A stretch of 64,000 nucleotides of DNA, from the IMG/VR virus record IMGVR_UViG_2974597248_000001, positions 49,479 to 113,478 of that record, one strand, 5' to 3'. Position numbers and translations under genes: made by a program. Below, in pieces: positions 7,731-60,702 of this stretch. Each line of letters begins with the position of its first letter. The first letter of the stretch is position 1. The notes beneath the pieces were generated by a model. The model had not been told where the DNA came from. It ran no database searches and worked only from the letters and a program-made list of their open reading frames with translations. The DNA is from a virus. Taxonomy: Duplodnaviria > Heunggongvirae > Uroviricota > Caudoviricetes > Demerecviridae.

Positions 7731-10494
7731 CTAGCTCTGCCATTGCTTCATCATGCATATGTTTCTCCTCGTCAGTCATAAACTTATACGGGATTGGCAT
7801 ACACTCGATTTTACAGTAGGTTCTGTACCAGTCTACAATATTCTCCGTGTTCATATCCTTGCCAATACCCATCATACCAAGATACATTCTAGCATATTTT
7901 GGGTTAGCACTCTGACCTGTTTTAAGAAAGAAATCTTTCTTCTTACCTTTCAGAGCTTCTATGAATGGTTTGATAGTGACATTTGAACACTTCTTAATAT
8001 CTTCCCAGAACATTTCGTGCATCTTATGGAAGAATGCAGCCCGATCATTAGGTTTATCCTTGATATATTGTTCAACATGCTCAACTGTTACATCTTTAAT
8101 AGACTCAAGATGGTAATAGCGAACAAGAAGTAGTTTAGCTTCATACGCATCTGCATGGCGTGGAGCACAGTAATCAGGAGTTGAATACAAAATGGCTTTG
8201 ATTCGCTCTTCCGTGTACTCTTTTCCTGCACCTTCGATAGTTCCCCAGCTTTCACTGAAAATATCAATAGTTGCACCCTGATCAAGCAAGTAATAACGTA
8301 AAGTACTAGTATAGTTCCTAGATTCCAGCTCCCTACGACGCGCGTATAATTGCTGTGCTAACTCCAGCCAACCTTCATCAATGTTATATTGTTCAGAGCC
8401 TGCGGAGAATCCACTCGTAGATTTATCAATAAAATAATAAATGTTCTGAGCACCACGGTCGCGCCTGATTGCTTGGAAACGCATGTTCGGCGCTTGGTTA
8501 CTAGTTCTAGTAATAACAAATACGTTATCAAAGTAGTTGAAGTCAACGCCACTTGTTACGGATGGACTACATAATAAGCAATCAATTTGTTGGTCAATTA
8601 GCTCATTAGTTGTGTAATCCAGAATACGTCGAATATCTACATCAGACGTAGAGTTTGAGTGGATTTCCTTAACTAGCGCACCCGTATTACGACGCAACGC
8701 CATGCCCTTCTCATTCAGTTCATCCGGCCCACAGTCAGATACTAGGATAGATTTTTCACCCATCTCTAGAGAAGTCTGAAGTGCAACCCAAATACTGGAT
8801 TCATCAGGAAACTCATAAGCATGAGCTTTTGACAGCATCTTACGGTGGTGGTTATAAAATGCCACTGGTTTATCAAAATCAATTAGAGAACCGTAAGCTT
8901 CAATCGTCTCAGCACTAATATCACCATCTGATAGAATTACAGTTTTAGCTGTCATGAGGATGTCACGTAGAACTTGAATACATTCGCGACGTTGTTTAAC
9001 AACTGGGGCGAATAATAGATCATTCATTACAGCGTCACATTCATCAATAAAGATGGTGTCTATTTGACCAATAAAACTTTTGAACTTATGCAAAGAGTGA
9101 ATAGTTGTGGACATACGATCAATAGCTCCACGTTTAAAGTTGAGCATATCTACGGACTTATCATATTGTCCTGCGCTAAATTTCTTAGCGTTTGAAGATA
9201 CCAGTGCTCTAGTATTTGTAACCGCTAAAAAGTTGCCAGGAAGAACACCTGCGTCCAGCCATTTAGTTACTGCCGTAGTTTTACCCGTACCAAGACTTGC
9301 CTTAACAAATGTTATGTGGCCTTTTGGGGGTACAATGTTAATCTTCAGGTATGGAACTTCTGGTGGAGAATCCACTTCTAATTTCTTGAGTGGAACACCT
9401 TTCAGATTTAATGGAATCTCACGTTTAGAATTATTAACAAACGCTTTGAGAGCCTGCTTACGACCGTTATTAAAGTAATCTTGAATATTACGACTGTTAT
9501 CTTTAGTTGCAATATATTCAGATAAAGCGGGTTTAATCTCACGTTCTAGCCATGCGAAATCAACACCATCCTCTAATGCTCTATGGTATAGTTTGGGGAT
9601 AATACGCAAGTACACTCCATCCTCAGCTTCTTCCAATTCGCTGATGGTTTCTTCTACTTTATCAGAAGCAATCTTTTTGCCTTTAATTTGGTCAAGTAAA
9701 GAATAAAACTCTTCCTTAAACTCCCCTCTAGTTGTTTCATAGTCAACCAGATTATTAGGCAAATTTACCTTCGAACCTTTAACATACACCAGACGTGGCT
9801 TACTCTCCGCTTTAAACGGATCTACAATACCATCGCTAAATAAAGGGTCGGCAAAATAGTGAAGCTGGACAGATGAATAATAAGCTAAGTCGGCAATATC
9901 AAAACCGAATTTTTGCTTACTACTATCATTGATAGACGTAAATAAGAACTTTAACTGACCTTGAGTTACCTTGACGTTAGATTCTAGCATTAAGTGCATT
10001 CGGATACCTGGTTTTAGGCCAGCCGAAGACGATGCATGAGCAATAAACCCTGCATCAAGAGGAAACATGTCCTCACTAATACTATTCAACATCTTAATAA
10101 TGTGGCGGGCCATGCCTACAAGATTAAACTTGTCGTACCCACCGGTATCTAGGATACCATCCACGTCCATAGCAATAATATTACTAGGGTTAGACACATT
10201 AAAGTTACCTTTCTTACGTCGCACATTATTTTTAGGTGCAAGACATCGACCTCGTACCGCAACGATATGAGGGTCAGACGTTAAACGTCTCATAAGTGGT
10301 AACATTTCGGCAAGGCTTTGCGGGTCATGCTCTTCTATTACATCAAATTTGAAGGGCATAGAAGCTGGTTTACCTTCTGGATGCTCTTTCGAGAATCGCT
10401 TGGCAAAGGTATAATCTTCCACTTTGATTTCTCGCCAAATACCTGTTGCTAAATCACGAGAAAATCCAGCGTGACCTCGAAGAATAGAAAACAC
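7711..10494 (-). CDS. large P-loop NTPase, possibly a primase-helicase or origin-binding protein
   Basis: 927 aa. A Walker A motif (VKASLGTGKTT) lies mid-protein and the N-terminus has an acidic DVDG motif. No secure family assignment. Confidence 0.5.
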   Translation of the reverse strand: MFSILRGHAGFSRDLATGIWREIKVEDYTFAKRFSKEHPEGKPASMPFKFDVIEEHDPQSLAEMLPLMRRLTSDPHIVAVRGRCLAPKNNVRRKKGNFNVSNPSNIIAMDVDGILDTGGYDKFNLVGMARHIIKMLNSISEDMFPLDAGFIAHASSSAGLKPGIRMHLMLESNVKVTQGQLKFLFTSINDSSKQKFGFDIADLAYYSSVQLHYFADPLFSDGIVDPFKAESKPRLVYVKGSKVNLPNNLVDYETTRGEFKEEFYSLLDQIKGKKIASDKVEETISELEEAEDGVYLRIIPKLYHRALEDGVDFAWLEREIKPALSEYIATKDNSRNIQDYFNNGRKQALKAFVNNSKREIPLNLKGVPLKKLEVDSPPEVPYLKINIVPPKGHITFVKASLGTGKTTAVTKWLDAGVLPGNFLAVTNTRALVSSNAKKFSAGQYDKSVDMLNFKRGAIDRMSTTIHSLHKFKSFIGQIDTIFIDECDAVMNDLLFAPVVKQRRECIQVLRDILMTAKTVILSDGDISAETIEAYGSLIDFDKPVAFYNHHRKMLSKAHAYEFPDESSIWVALQTSLEMGEKSILVSDCGPDELNEKGMALRRNTGALVKEIHSNSTSDVDIRRILDYTTNELIDQQIDCLLCSPSVTSGVDFNYFDNVFVITRTSNQAPNMRFQAIRRDRGAQNIYYFIDKSTSGFSAGSEQYNIDEGWLELAQQLYARRRELESRNYTSTLRYYLLDQGATIDIFSESWGTIEGAGKEYTEERIKAILYSTPDYCAPRHADAYEAKLLLVRYYHLESIKDVTVEHVEQYIKDKPNDRAAFFHKMHEMFWEDIKKCSNVTIKPFIEALKGKKKDFFLKTGQSANPKYARMYLGMMGIGKDMNTENIVDWYRTYCKIECMPIPYKFMTDEEKHMHDEAMAELGARNDS

Positions 10495-40066: not shown

Positions 40067-40234
40067 ATGTTTAAACTGTTAGTAGTTATCTGGTATAGTC
40101 AATCAAATAGAGCGAATACCTCCCATATTATAGACTTTAATACTAAAAATGAAGCTGAAAAAGCATATGCTAATTTAATAGAACGTAATAAAGAATCTCG
40201 TAGTATAGTTTATGAAGTGACTAAACTTTATTAA
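40067..40234 (+). CDS. small hypothetical protein
   Basis: 55 aa. Confidence 0.35.
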   Translation: MFKLLVVIWYSQSNRANTSHIIDFNTKNEAEKAYANLIERNKESRSIVYEVTKLY

Positions 40235-56486: not shown

Positions 56487-56671
56487 TGGAAACATTACTT
56501 CTTGTATTACTAGGAGGCTCACTCCTAATAATCCTGGGGCTGATACTGATTTGCAGTCGCCTCAATACTAAGAATCTAGAGTTAACCTGTGAGAATGAAA
56601 TTCTCAATAATGAACTCTTTCAATATAACATCGCAGCTCATAAACTGTTAGACAAACTGGAGAATAAATAA
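56486..56671 (+). CDS. small membrane protein
   Basis: 61 aa. Confidence 0.4.
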   Translation: METLLLVLLGGSLLIILGLILICSRLNTKNLELTCENEILNNELFQYNIAAHKLLDKLENK

Positions 56672-57291
56672 TGACTTTTAATGCACAACAACCTATTCAA
56701 GTAGTACCAGACCATGAACTGAACACATGGGATTATAGCTTTAAAGATTTAACTGCTACTGTACAATTCAAATCTATGAAGCTAACATTTGCACACAATG
56801 ACCTTAGAGCATGTAAAGATCTTGAGGATAAGCTCGAAGATGCTCGTAAGATTTTTGGCAAGGCTCGCATCCCGGCTGATAATCTAATTAACGCATTAAT
56901 CGATGCAGGGTACAAACTTGTGAAGACTGAGGTGAACCGCCCTAGTACTCCAGTGACTATTAGAGATCCGTGGCAATCAGGAACAATCTCAATGCTGAAT
57001 AACTCCGATAAAAGATTAATGTCGGATATGCACAATGTTCCTTGTGGGGGTGTGGTAAGTAGTACGCAGTCATATAAGTTTGCGGAAGATTACGGCCCTT
57101 CTGTACAGTTGAAACATACTCAAGAAGCTTTTGAATCCGATATGCGAAGCGTAGCACCTGCGGATGCTGGAGTTTCTGGGAGTTCTGTTTGTACTATTCA
57201 TTTTAATAATCCTAGTAAACATGGAAGTCTAGAAGATGCTATTATGGAGGCGTTGGGGGCTGCTCTTAATGAAGATAAGAGAGGTAATTAA
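56671..57291 (+). CDS. hypothetical protein
   Basis: 206 aa. Confidence 0.55.
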   Translation: MTFNAQQPIQVVPDHELNTWDYSFKDLTATVQFKSMKLTFAHNDLRACKDLEDKLEDARKIFGKARIPADNLINALIDAGYKLVKTEVNRPSTPVTIRDPWQSGTISMLNNSDKRLMSDMHNVPCGGVVSSTQSYKFAEDYGPSVQLKHTQEAFESDMRSVAPADAGVSGSSVCTIHFNNPSKHGSLEDAIMEALGAALNEDKRGN

Positions 57292-58016
57292 TGAGTATTA
57301 AAAAGAATTTAGCAGAGATTATTAAGTTAGCTAGAGCTTGTAATGGGAAATGTGTTTCTCAGCTTAATGAGTTAGAGGCACATGCAGTAGCATTTTGTGC
57401 AGAGTTTTATCCTGCATATATTAATGCTAGTGGACAACCTAAATATAATAAAGATGCAGAAGAAGTTACATTAGCACCTTCATATATTAGCTTGCGTCGT
57501 TTAATTCAAACCGTTGATCCTACTATTAAAGGATTCTCAGCAGATTCATTCCATGTATTTGCAGATAAAGAACTCCCGTATTTTAAAGAAGGAAATGCAA
57601 AGTCATGTCTAGAATGTTATCCTAATATTCTGATGATTCCTCAAAAGCAATGTAAATATGATCATCTTCCTAGACTTACAAAGAAAGTAGAACCACCTTA
57701 TTCTTCTCTATCTGAGTTAAAGCTAGGAATCGTATCTACACTTGCGCAGGTTCATCTAAGTATAGTTGACGACTCAACAACATCTAACCCTATTCTAGAT
57801 GCTGCTCACTTTGAAATTTTACGTGATCCTGAACAAGCTAGAAAAGTTGCTAAGTCTGTTAAGTTTGATATATCAACAATTCTTGACACTAAACAAGAAA
57901 CTAGACCTAGAGGAAGTGTAGATTATTCTGCGCTAAATTCCGAGTCATCTTACTTAGCAACATTCCTTTTCATGGCGTCAAAAGGAGTTATTCTAAAGGT
58001 TAATAAAGATGGATGA
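57291..58016 (+). CDS. hypothetical protein
   Basis: 241 aa. Confidence 0.55.
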   Translation: MSIKKNLAEIIKLARACNGKCVSQLNELEAHAVAFCAEFYPAYINASGQPKYNKDAEEVTLAPSYISLRRLIQTVDPTIKGFSADSFHVFADKELPYFKEGNAKSCLECYPNILMIPQKQCKYDHLPRLTKKVEPPYSSLSELKLGIVSTLAQVHLSIVDDSTTSNPILDAAHFEILRDPEQARKVAKSVKFDISTILDTKQETRPRGSVDYSALNSESSYLATFLFMASKGVILKVNKDG

Positions 58017-58737
58017 TTTACGTGCTGAAATTAATAAAAAGCTACGCGAGGAAGCCAGGAGGTTTCCTCTTAAAAACTTTTTGAAGTCAAATGGCTCTAC
58101 TAATATAACGAAGATTAGGCAACTTCACCCTGACTTCCAACAAGAGGCCTTAAACCTTATCTTTATTAGGAAAGCTTTAAAAGTCCAGAAAGAAGAATAT
58201 GGGTATGAAAAAGTTAATTATAAGACAGCCAATCAGTTAGTAGAGATATGGTGCTATAAGCATAAAGGATACTTTATGCAAACTGCTAGATCCCACCTAG
58301 ATGGGCACGGCTGTTTACAGTGTGCTAGAGAAAGCAATCTTAATACACCTATCGAGAAACCGGAAGTAGAAGAAGATGTTCAGTTTCCCACATATCTCTA
58401 CATCTTCTCTAATAAAGATCAGTCTAGGAAGAAATTAAAGACAAAGATTGGGGTTTCTAGAGAGCCACATCAAAGGTTTAAGAATCTAGAGTATGATAAA
58501 TTGCGTGTGCCGGGTTTTGAAGATATGGAAGTATTTGGTATCTACCAGTACAAGAAAGGATCGAAAGAACTTGCTTATAAAATAGAACACCAAGCACATA
58601 AATTTTTCGAGAATAAATTTGCTAACCATTATAAATTCGATGGAGCAAAAGAGATATTCAACATTAAAGCTATAGAGGCAGAAGAATATCTATTAAGTCA
58701 AGGTTGCGTAAAAATTTACCCAACTCCAAACTCATGA
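58009..58737 (+). CDS. T5orf172-domain protein with one Zn ribbon (full-length paralog of 56046..56486)
   Basis: TYLYIFS...KIGVSREPHQRFKNL T5orf172-like block plus a GHGCLQCA Zn ribbon. Confidence 0.65.
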   Translation: MDDLRAEINKKLREEARRFPLKNFLKSNGSTNITKIRQLHPDFQQEALNLIFIRKALKVQKEEYGYEKVNYKTANQLVEIWCYKHKGYFMQTARSHLDGHGCLQCARESNLNTPIEKPEVEEDVQFPTYLYIFSNKDQSRKKLKTKIGVSREPHQRFKNLEYDKLRVPGFEDMEVFGIYQYKKGSKELAYKIEHQAHKFFENKFANHYKFDGAKEIFNIKAIEAEEYLLSQGCVKIYPTPNS

Positions 58738-58764
58738 CGAAAATTTAAAAATAACGAAATCTGC

Positions 58765-58794
58765 TTGACATTCGTGAGAATAATGTGTTATAAT
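58765..58794 (+). promoter_or_regulatory. consensus sigma70 promoter with no downstream ORF
   Basis: TTGACA-18-TATAAT; the best -35/-10 match in the window. Confidence 0.55.
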
Positions 58795-59000
58795 AATCTC
58801 ATAGATTAAAAACATCAACTTGTTTTTACCTCTAGGCCGTAGATTTACATCATTCCTCGTAGGAAAACACTTGATGACGGTTCTGCTCGCAGGTTCTCGT
58901 CAATTGTTCTTCCACACCGAGACTTAGGAGGATGTATCAAATCGCACGCGCCTAGAGGGGCTAACTCTCATGAAATGGGGGTATATTTATTTTTAAATAA
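58795..59000 (+). ncRNA. candidate non-coding transcript from an ORF-less consensus promoter
   Basis: TTGACA-18-TATAAT at 58765-58794. The longest downstream ORF is 17 codons. Confidence 0.3.
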
Positions 59001-59147
59001 CTAAAAAATATTTAAAGGCAATATCTGTGTTCAAGATGATACACCTGTTGCCGCTCATCTGCTAGGATGGCACAACACTTTCTTCTAGACTCCTAAGTTT
59101 CTAGGAATAGTTGAGCACAAACTCTAGCGTTTATACTAAACTTTAAA

Positions 59148-59882
59148 TCGGATTTGCACATGTTCTAGGGCAGTTTCTCTTAACGCTACATATCCTAGGC
59201 CGGTTTTCCTATACAGGGCGGTTATAGGGAGGGCGGTTATTTCTAGACAACATTTTTTGAAAACACATTTTCAGAAATTACTGTCGGATTTGCACATTGT
59301 GTTTCTAGAAATTTATGGTCGGATTTGCACAATTGCCTAAGTTTTTAGGAACATATAATCTCCTGAAAATGGCAGCATTATTTCGGGCCGAAGGCCCATG
59401 ATTGCCTGAGTTTTTAGAGCCACAGAAATTTTCACTTGTCAAGCTATTTTGCCCCATTTTGCTAATAAAATTTTACTTTATCTCCACTAATCTCAAATTA
59501 ACCCAAATCTTCTCAACTCTTCCCCAAAATCCCCGCAAATCAGGTGGCCCGCACCAAACATGCGCCCCTCTAGCTTCTCCCCTAATTTTCTCTCGCTCTC
59601 TCATCTTCTCCACAAACCCGCACAATCACACACCCTCCAATCGAAGTCACAAAAATCTTGTCGGATTCGCACAAATAAACTCATGTCGGATTTGCACATA
59701 TTCTAGCTAATTCCACAGGATTGATGCGCAGCATCGGATTGCTGGAGTTTCTAGAAAAATTCATTGTCGGATTTGCACACTATAAAAATTTTTCGGGTCG
59801 GATTTGCACACTACCAAAAATTGTCGGATTCGCACATACACGCCCGCACGTAACACCCGTGGAGCAATGTCGGATTTGCACA
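59148..59882 (+). repeat. array of nine dispersed direct copies of a 14-mer iteron, GTCGGATT(T/C)GCACA
   Basis: Copies start at 59148, 59274, 59308, 59660, 59685, 59766, 59797, 59823 and 59869, all in the same orientation. Confidence 0.85.
59480..59660 (+). repeat. strand-asymmetric, nearly G-free C/A/T-rich low-complexity tract
   Basis: About 180 nt of the form CCCCAAAATCCCCGCAAATC...CACAAACCCGCACAATCACACACCCTCCAATCG on the plus strand. Confidence 0.6.
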
Positions 59883-59884
59883 AA

Positions 59885-59906
59885 AGCGCAGGGCAATTGC
59901 CCTGCG
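59885..59906. repeat. 22-bp perfect palindrome GCGCAGGGCAATTGCCCTGCGC
   Basis: Read directly from the sequence. Confidence 0.9.
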
Positions 59907-59910
59907 CTAA

Positions 59911-60120
59911 ATACGAATGATAATAAGAATCATTCTCATTTAAAAAGCGGAATGAGAATGATAATAATTCTCATTTAAAAAGCGGAATGATAATCATTAT
60001 CATTTAAAAAGCGGGATGAGAATCATTTAAAAAGTGGAACGATTCTCATTTAAAAAGCGGAATAATTCTCATTTAAAAAGCGGAATGCGAATGATAATGA
60101 TTCGCATTTAAGAATGGAAG
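59911..60120. repeat. degenerate tandem array (7 units of 23-35 bp) of a palindromic A+T-rich unit TCATTTAAAAAGCGGAATGAgAATgATaAT
   Basis: Unit starts at 59936, 59971, 60000, 60023, 60046, 60069 and 60104. Confidence 0.85.
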
Positions 60121-60141
60121 TGAGAAACACTGTTATTTAAG

Positions 60142-60161
60142 TTATCCCCAGACTTATCAAC
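60142..60161 (+). promoter_or_regulatory. two DnaA-box-like 9-mers (TTATCCCCA, TTATCAACA; each 8/9) outside the left inverted repeat
   Basis: The CAGACTTATC context recurs at 60149 and 60210. Confidence 0.4.
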
Positions 60162-60209
60162 AGCACGATTTGACTTGACAAAATTCTAGCCATTTTGAGG
60201 CGTTATTAA

Positions 60210-60249
60210 CAGACTTATCCACAGCTTATCCTACTGTATAAATATACAG
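60210..60249. repeat. left 40-bp perfect inverted repeat (contains the DnaA box TTATCCACA at 60215-60223)
   Basis: CAGACTTATCCACAGCTTATCCTACTGTATAAATATACAG is the exact reverse complement of 62425-62464. Confidence 0.9.
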
Positions 60250-60507
60250 TATTCCTACGCAGTGAATAATTCTAATATACCGCTAAAACGCCCTCAAACG
60301 CATTCTAACGCGTTTAATTTTGTTGGGGATACTAAAACAAGGGCAAAATTGGAGGAGGCTTGAAAATTAGTTAGCGAGCTAACGATCACATAAGGCGACA
60401 CGTAACACCCTAACCATTAGCAGGCTAACCATCGCGGGCGCGGTCAAATGAGAATCACTCTCATTTGAGAATTGGGGGCACTCCCGGATAGTTGCGCCCC
60501 GTGATTA

Positions 60508-60702
60508 TTAGTCAGGTAGTTGATGCGTGATCTTTTCCTCCTCCCCGTAGGAATCCACCAAATACTGATAATAACCATCGTGATCATAGATCACTTTATC
60601 ATATTCCCCACGCTCAACCGCTTGTCGGTTTTCTGGCGTATCAGGCACGTAAAAAACATCAACCATTGTACTGATTTTGGTTACAACAATTTTATTGCTC
60701 AT
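60508..60702 (-). CDS. hypothetical protein (inside the IR-bounded segment)
   Basis: 64 aa. Confidence 0.35.
   Translation of the reverse strand: MSNKIVVTKISTMVDVFYVPDTPENRQAVERGEYDKVIYDHDGYYQYLVDSYGEEEKITHQLPD

Follow-up and report, generated by a model that had tools for sequence, protein, structure and literature searches.

What is an array of nine short direct repeats, all facing the same way, doing in a non-coding stretch of a phage genome? We addressed this question for positions 59147-59882 of a 64,000-nucleotide stretch of the IMG/VR virus record IMGVR_UViG_2974597248_000001 (hereafter the window; coordinates, some prefixed with w, are window positions unless they are said to be those of a record). 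The region was 100% identical by megablast to Salmonella phage SP01 (KY114934 / NC_047859; Tequintavirus, T5-like), and window position w corresponded to SP01 record position w + 49478. The SP01 record runs opposite to the T5 convention, and to the right of the array are the pre-early genes A2, A1, and dmp. Judged by sequence and layout, the SP01 array is the direct repeat D (DRD) element of phage T5 in a sister species. The element itself is already known: the T5 reference genome carries an annotation for it, and its conservation in T5-like phages has been noted before. What is new here is that the array brackets a precisely conserved genome-end site, and that its bipartite layout and co-changing flanks extend to Vibrio phages. 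As to function, our tentative preference is that the repeats are recognised by the machinery that packages the DNA and makes the right-end cut, and this reading is weighed below against a role in DNA entry and against other explanations.

Nine co-oriented repeats in a non-coding stretch

The 14-mer GTCGGATTYGCACA had eight exact matches in the window, at 59283, 59318, 59660, 59685, 59766, 59797, 59823, and 59869, all on the + strand, and a ninth copy (ATCGGATTTGCACA, 59147-59160) differed from it by one mismatch. No match to GTCGGATTYGCACA was found in 100 dinucleotide-preserving shuffles, and 0 were expected by chance, so the nine same-orientation repeats described in the initial annotation are real. 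The start-to-start distances were 136, 35, 342, 25, 81, 31, 26, and 46 bp. The spacing is thus irregular, as had been said, but the range of 34 to 350 bp given for it should read 25 to 342 bp, and position 59148, given as the start of the array, is the first base of the TCGG core, the first copy beginning at 59147. By arithmetic on the spacings, the cumulative offsets of the inner copies were not multiples of approximately 10.5 bp. The copies were distributed over all three reading frames and the longest mechanically called open reading frame (ORF) across the stretch was 102 amino acids, so no single ORF reads the array as a peptide repeat, which agrees with the annotation that no ORF accounts for the copies.

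The complete SP01 genome (117,842 bp) was rebuilt from the window and three record pieces for motif counts. This analysis showed that the exact 14-mer occurred only in the array (8 copies) and in a six-copy set at record positions 244-466, which belongs to the other terminal repeat, while the opposite strand of the complete genome contained no exact copy. The motif is therefore not spread at similar density throughout the genome, as a compositional artefact would be. Copies with one mismatch were found at w59147, at w57021, and as a pair at record positions 40188/40203. The copy at 57021-57034 (GTCGGATATGCACA, + strand) is an outlying tenth copy, located 2.1 kb upstream of the array within the early coding sequence 56671-57291 (phrog_5271). 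Several other T5-like genomes have an exact 14-mer approximately 1.7-2.0 kb upstream of the array.

Identity with direct repeat D of T5

In the curated T5 record (GenBank AY587007), positions 9672-10409 carry the features "direct repeat D copy 1" through "copy 9", and no coding sequence is annotated over this region. The left terminal repeat of T5 ends at 10139, so that six DRD copies are inside it and three beyond, and copy 1 comes after "palindrome J" and "major single-stranded nick 1, 7.9%". The T5 copies that we extracted from AY587007 read TGTGC(A/G)AATCCGAC(A), which is the exact reverse complement of the window 14-mer, and this means that the element was already known.

The array in the window consists of two clusters, three copies outside the terminal repeat and six inside, all on the + strand. 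Offsets from the repeat boundary are given here for SP01, with those of T5 in second place. The outer cluster (cluster A) contains the equivalents of T5 copy 9 (59147-59160, -270 and -271), which is the least conserved copy, copy 8 (59283-59296, -134 in both phages), and copy 7 (59318-59331, -99 in both). The inner cluster (cluster B) contains the equivalents of copy 6 (59660-59673, +243 and +245, a C variant), copy 5 (59685-59698, +268 and +270), which lies 10 bp further along in some lineages, copy 4 (59766-59779, +349 and +351), copy 3 (59797-59810, +380 and +382), copy 2 (59823-59836, +406 and +408, also a C variant), and copy 1 (59869-59882, +452 and +454), which is 3 bp from palindrome J. 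The left half (59886-59893) of the homologue of this palindrome (GCGCAGGGCAATTGCCCTGCGC, 59886-59907, not assigned to a strand) is homologous to the T5 site "major single-stranded nick 1, 7.9%". On the - strand a TTTT comes after the palindrome, which thus resembles a terminator of the pre-early transcripts.

The two arrays therefore share the repeat unit, nine co-oriented copies in the same order with spacings that agree to 1-2 bp, the division into six copies inside and three outside the terminal repeat, and the same neighbours, since palindrome J with the 7.9% nick, a palindromic array, and DnaA boxes adjoin both. They differ in which copies carry the T/C variant, in small substitutions in the spacers, and in the length of the terminal repeat, which is 8,948 bp in SP01 and 10,139 bp in T5.

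Davison (2020; bioRxiv 10.1101/866236) placed the T5 copies in Repeat Region 3 (9194-10409), described the DRDs as conserved among T5-like phages with credit to earlier descriptions, and gave them no function; the candidates for the injection stop named there were IRD'-spacer-IRC' with its DnaA boxes, and the DRE repeats. Two papers of 2026 characterise the T5 region merely as rich in repeats and palindromes, and a 2026 T5 deletion study makes no mention of a role for the non-coding region. Our literature search found no paper tying the DRDs to the terminase.

The array brackets the end of the terminal repeat

Position 1 of the SP01 record mapped to w59417, and the two sequences were identical from there to the end of the window. 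The last bases of the record mapped to record position 8948, which gives a terminal repeat of 8,948 bp. The boundary sequence is ...GCCTGAGTTTTTA/GAGCCACAGAAATTTTCAC (TTTTTA/GAGCC, the slash marking the boundary). In T5 orientation this boundary is the right genome terminus; its site, GAGTTTTTA/GAG, occupies 59408-59419 on the + strand, and the cut falls between 59416 and 59417, in the gap between the two DRD clusters. Annotations place the repeat end at the identical site in T5, Spc35, and MM-2, as well as in the Epseptimaviruses Sw2 and Sepoy, where it is given as PhageTerm-determined. In all of these phages the DRD offsets were approximately -134 and -99 on the unique side of the boundary and approximately +244 to +453 on the repeat side, constant to 1-2 bp. 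In Klebsiella phage IME260 and Vibrio phage Ceto the boundary likewise lies within the inter-cluster gap of approximately 340 bp. Altogether, 10 records from 4 genera, and in addition MM-2 (genus unassigned), have the boundary between the two clusters, two of these boundaries being PhageTerm-defined. The array is thus found at the site of the mature genome end, which is where a terminase site is expected. The other end of the repeat (record 8948/8949) showed no DRD and no motif in common with the array junction.

If, as in the older T5 literature, one copy of the repeat lies between genome units in replicating concatemers, then 59416/59417 would be the place where the cut that makes the right virion DNA end must fall.

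Other sequence features accompany the boundary. A second co-oriented motif, RAGTTTYTAGRR, matched at 59095, 59339, 59408, 59745, and 45861, all on the + strand, giving five occurrences in the window against 0.39 expected, a statistic that is only indicative since the pattern was defined after the data had been seen. Four of the five matches are within the DRD region, and the copy at 59408 holds the terminal-repeat boundary. From the cut to the inner cluster there is a C-rich, G-poor spacer (59440-59659, + strand; 80 C and 16 G in 220 nt, GC skew -0.67), and a compositionally similar tract is present in the Klebsiella and Vibrio relatives; conservation of the first approximately 70 bp of the spacer reaches as far as Klebsiella phages. 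Its complement is G-rich, with runs such as GGGGATTTTGGGG, within approximately 240 bp of the physical DNA end. The interval 59411-59483, which reaches approximately 70 bp inside the boundary, was the sole part of an 800-bp query that blastn detected in most of the Klebsiella Sugarlandvirus hits, at approximately 80% identity, and this suggests a conserved terminus-proximal element, separate from the DRDs.

Conservation of the array among T5-like phages

A search of IMG/VR gave 118 loci with the exact 14-mer. Every multi-copy locus was on a T5-like contig of approximately 96-122 kb, and the remainder were single chance matches. Among the loci with at least three array copies, none had a copy on the opposite strand. 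The spacing 137 / 35 / ~343 / 25 (or 35) / 81 (or 71) / 31 / 26 / 46 was near-constant across T5-like contigs, and copy positions were kept to 1-2 bp across dozens of T5-like genomes. One inner copy occupied either of two sites exactly 10 bp apart, depending on lineage (25/81 versus 35/71), while the flanking copies were fixed. This 10-bp shift is about one helical turn. A degenerate scan of IMG/VR for TCGG-N4-GCACA pairs gave, beyond the T5-like contigs, many short low-copy matches in unrelated contigs, and it was of no use for locating distant arrays.

Within Tequintavirus and Epseptimavirus, mean column identity was 0.84 for the spacers and 0.91 for the DRD columns, so these close relatives do not give a sharp footprint because their spacers are conserved too. 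Information content was limited to 13-14 positions, R-TCGG-ATTY-GCACA, plus an A-rich patch 7-9 bp upstream; the sites were gathered at no more than 3 mismatches to the consensus, which inflates their apparent conservation. The CRP, LexA, IHF, Fis, Tus, matS, SBS, and KOPS consensus sites were compared with the 14-mer, and none fits it.

The motif persisted in Klebsiella, Erwinia, and Vibrio relatives in which the spacers have diverged. Klebsiella Sugarlandviruses (Roth50, IME260) have four to five outer copies at 27-bp spacing and six inner copies of TCGG-W3Y-GCACA(TA) with diverged spacers, and Erwinia phage KEY has an array of 2 + 5 copies. The order of parts was kept in Sugarlandvirus and in Ermolyevavirinae: promoter and putative small RNA, cluster A, cut, C-rich tract, cluster B, GC hairpin, palindromic array, and DnaA boxes. 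In Vibrio phage Ceto (Ermolyevavirinae), whose repeat boundary was taken from the record ends, a consensus promoter with a structured region is followed by the outer cluster, the boundary, the C-rich tract, and an inner cluster of approximately nine copies, beyond which come the GC hairpin, the palindromic array, and three perfect TTATCCACA boxes. This is a distant relative, the A1 proteins of Vibrio phages related to Ceto being only approximately 31-34% identical. The repeat of Ceto is (CTAG)AATTTGCACCTAY, and it has the core ATTTGCAC in common with the repeats of the other relatives, but the flanks of this core are altered together in almost all copies (TCGG..A to CTAGA..CTAT). Since the flanks changed in concert while the DnaA boxes of the same phage stayed perfect TTATCCACA, the comparison argues for a co-evolving binder that is probably phage-encoded.

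Neighbouring promoter, putative small RNA, and flanking genes

The genes flanking the array are phrog_5271, phrog_8993, and a gene for a T5orf172/endonuclease-like protein. The product of the last of these, which is also the last early gene (58009-58737, + strand), has a T5orf172 / MUG113 domain and endonuclease-like PHROG matches. It is labelled "endonuclease" in several relatives, and in all the Tequintavirus and Epseptimavirus records checked its gene lies next to the array.

Between this gene and the array there is a perfect TTGACA-18-TATAAT promoter with a TG extended -10 (58765-58794, + strand). A region of approximately 190 nt follows the promoter and ends in a hairpin with a T-run at 58964-58992. 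The initial annotation had described an ORF-less consensus promoter here; the promoter is indeed a perfect sigma-70 one and points to the array, but it has its own terminator-like hairpin and therefore most likely drives a separate small RNA, not transcription of the array. A probable reading of 58765-58992 is thus an unannotated small RNA gene. In T5, Spc35, saus176N, poul124, MM-2, Sw2, Sepoy, Roth50, KEY, Ceto, and PL1, the promoter and the RNA region have the same location, after the last early gene and before the outer DRD cluster. The 5' end (CTCATAGATTAA) and the 3' end (TGGGGG and a T-rich stretch) of the putative RNA are conserved, and its interior is highly variable in sequence and mostly folds as one long near-perfect hairpin. 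Minimum free energy z-scores were -2.8 to -7.8 in 10 lineages, with the sense strand more stable than the antisense in 9 of the 10. No Rfam family matched the putative RNA at the gathering threshold, and the T5 record carries no annotation for it.

Two further observations concern coding sequences elsewhere in the genome. The one-mismatch pair outside the window, at record positions 40188-40216 (GTCGGATTTGCACC and GTAGGATTTGCACA, 15 bp apart, on the array strand) is inside an SbcC-like recombination exonuclease gene and encodes a coiled-coil repeat, VQILQVQIR, on the other strand, so the pair may be a coincidence arising from the peptide repeat. The SP01 "A2 protein" (record 114277-114429) is annotated at 51 amino acids against 135 in Spc35, and for an essential gene this difference suggests that there is a frameshift, an error of sequencing, or a mis-call.

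Discussion

The proposal of the initial annotation that the repeats are a cluster of protein-binding sites is a reasonable one, as the information content is bounded to 13-14 bp, the orientation is single, positions are conserved, and the motif survives diverged spacers. The DRDs lie on both sides of the cut and are absent at the other end of the repeat, and for this reason we favour, as the best of several readings but at clearly less than even odds, that they are recognition sites of the packaging machinery making the right-end cut. A phage-encoded DNA-binding protein would assemble on the array, the likeliest candidate being the small terminase subunit (TerS; phrog_3802, a product of 160 amino acids encoded just upstream of terL), and would position the large terminase to cut at TTTTTA/GAGCC. 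T5 DNA goes into the cell with its left end leading, and since tailed phages eject the last-packaged DNA first, the right end should be the one packaged first. The junction 59416/59417 would then be the packaging-initiation cut in the concatemer, and the sites, all facing one way, would direct translocation into the repeat and on towards the late genes. The left repeat end, which has no DRD sites, would be cut by a different, termination-type mechanism, and the asymmetry of the two ends fits an initiation site at one and a termination site at the other. The TerS gene is present, and its N-terminal approximately 100 amino acids are the part conserved across genera. PDB sequence searches with TerS and with A2 gave nothing significant.

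Repeated short sites that flank or adjoin a cut are known from P1 pac (4 + 3 hexamers), lambda cosB (R1-R3), SPP1 pacL/pacR, and T7 SRL/SRR. P1 pac resembles the SP01 array in having short repeats on both sides of the terminase cut and a cut-bearing spacer, with 4 + 3 elements in P1 and 3 + 6 here. P1 pac is unlike the SP01 array in that it covers approximately 160 bp, has 6-bp Dam-methylated elements, and starts headful packaging, whereas the SP01 array covers approximately 735 bp, has 14-bp sites, and belongs to a genome with fixed ends and a direct terminal repeat of approximately 9 kb; terminase binding is hypothetical for the DRDs. Lambda cosB, with R1-R3 for gpNu1, and SPP1 pacL/pacR also place multiple short small-terminase sites beside the cut on the side packaged first, but these sites are fewer and approximately 50-150 bp from the cut, while the nearest inner site of SP01 is at 243 bp, and the lambda R sites, unlike the DRDs, are not all co-oriented. 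In T7, which packages its DNA from concatemers, the SRL/SRR arrays of short direct repeats likewise border the direct terminal repeat, but there the repeat is 160 bp and both edges carry arrays, while T5-like phages have an array at one edge of a 9-10-kb repeat.

Several points weigh against the packaging reading. The boundaries of poul124 and saus176N are annotated 206 bp further in and that of IME260 20 bp further out, which is still inside the inter-cluster gap but away from the site seen in T5. For poul124 and saus176N the published description reports repeat lengths only, and the offsets of these three phages may be annotation imprecision or real differences. At 243-452 bp, the inner cluster is far from the cut for a cosB-type site, and the length of the array as a whole exceeds that of typical pac/cos sites. 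The Proteus Novosibvirus PL1 has the palindromes and the DnaA boxes but lacks the DRD motif, other repeats (TACTAGAATGGCTG) filling the corresponding region. Position alone does not separate packaging from injection, since the terminus is always accompanied by the putative stop elements: the palindromes, the DnaA boxes, and the 7.9% nick adjoin cluster B in every lineage examined. Nor does covariation of the motif single out TerS, since by tblastn TerS and A2 had the same host-genus distribution and diverged alike (68% and 65% identity, respectively, in Klebsiella phages, approximately 41-51% and 40-44% in Vibrio phages). The direction of packaging is taken from the general principle given above and is, for T5, inferred.

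The main competitor, which we regard as possible but rather doubtful, is that the DRDs are sites of the essential pre-early DNA-binding protein A2, or of an A1-A2 complex, for the restart of second-step transfer. Binding of A2 or A1-A2 to successive co-oriented sites past the stall would release the DNA or ratchet it in; in a variant due to Davison, it would guide cleavage by A1/A2 "rightwards of iss". That model requires a specific site right of iss in both repeats, and cluster B fits this. A DNA-transfer role, one of the functions proposed in the initial annotation, thus stays a live rival: only 3 bp separate the array from the palindrome J homologue with its 7.9% nick, which is situated at the classical first-step boundary, although the stop point of first-step transfer in T5 is known only to about 8% of the genome. 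A2 is essential for second-step transfer and is called a DNA-binding protein in the literature, which leaves its mechanism unexplained and its target unnamed. The array always accompanies the module of palindromes and DnaA boxes, and the spacing widens away from the stop (46, 26, 31, 81, 25, 342, 35, 136, then approximately 2.1 kb to the tenth copy), as would suit a restart ramp. On the other hand, the DRDs would be beyond the sheared 7.9% point at the pause and may therefore sit outside the cytoplasm, out of reach of newly made A2. An A2 model also gives no reason for a precise, conserved repeat boundary between the two clusters, the literature seen on A2 reports no sequence specificity, and PL1 has kept an A2 homologue ("DNA binding protein") where the DRD motif is absent. 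One combined version, which we consider unlikely, would make the array the long-sought cis element of the two-step delivery of T5, with A2 (with or without A1) binding the co-oriented sites on their arrival in the cytoplasm and so releasing the stalled genome or ratcheting it in, and the same module maybe also serving as the packaging-initiation site.

It is similarly unlikely that the sites belong to some other phage protein with a boundary function, such as a polar roadblock to replication forks or transcription where the pre-early region meets the early one, or a factor for duplication or recombination of the terminal repeat. Strict single orientation is typical of polar barriers. The array also lies precisely on the repeat/unique junction, and early transcription (+ strand, ending at 58737) and pre-early transcription (- strand, with its terminator at palindrome J) converge on this zone. 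With terminators present on either side of the array, though, a roadblock seems redundant, and this residual category comes with no known candidate protein and no specific prediction. That the binding protein is DnaA, with the DRDs as low-affinity boxes extending the neighbouring DnaA-box cluster, appears very unlikely. In Davison's model, the DnaA-box cluster tethers first-step DNA to membrane-bound DnaA, and consensus boxes are 300-400 bp away in every lineage; moreover, of the nine 3' bases of the repeat (ATTTGCACA) 8 agree with the DnaA box TTWTNCACA, and in natural variants of the form GGTTTTGCACA all 9 do. The pattern of conservation is nevertheless not that of a DnaA box: TCGG, which is outside the box, and the G at the "N" position are nearly invariant, while box position 4 varies (the common C variant, and the A and AA variants in Klebsiella phages, all match at only 7 of 9), and in Ceto nearly all copies have C at box position 9, beside perfect TTATCCACA boxes.

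Replication-origin iterons or a partition centromere, both suggested in the initial annotation, are still less credible, and neither proposal stood up. There are direct repeats of binding-site size near DnaA boxes and A/T-rich palindromes, and together with the partial DnaA-box match this gives some likeness to replication iterons and to DnaA-box clusters such as oriC and datA. Unlike those systems, however, the DRDs have no initiator or ParA/ParB-type gene among their neighbours (phrog_5271, phrog_8993, and T5orf172/endonuclease-like), no mapped origin at the site, an irregular spacing of 25-342 bp that is unlike regular, helically phased iterons, and a pattern of conservation other than that of DnaA. 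The phage is virulent. According to Davison (2020; bioRxiv 10.1101/866236), the T5 origins are near the genome centre, and the replication genes are unexpressed while only this region is inside the cell. Least credible of all, to the point that we give it almost no weight, is that the repeats work at the level of RNA, transcribed from the promoter at 58765, or of protein, as a repeated peptide. The promoter does face the array and several GenBank records place small hypothetical ORFs across the region, but the hairpin and T-run at 58964-58992 stand between promoter and array, the copies fall in all three frames, and the ORFs are short and, where annotated, differ between records. An Rfam scan of 58600-60600 gave nine matches at E <= 1, all far below gathering scores and mostly in the palindromic array, not in the DRDs.

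T5-like phages are widely used as biocontrol and model phages, and the array bears on two unexplained mechanisms of this group, the cutting of the ends of a 9-10-kb terminal repeat and the stop and restart of DNA entry. The comparison presented here turns a descriptive list of repeats into two sharply distinct hypotheses, TerS binding for packaging versus A2 binding for the restart of DNA transfer. If the array were to serve both A2 and the initiation of packaging, the formation of the genome end would be linked to the later pause during entry.

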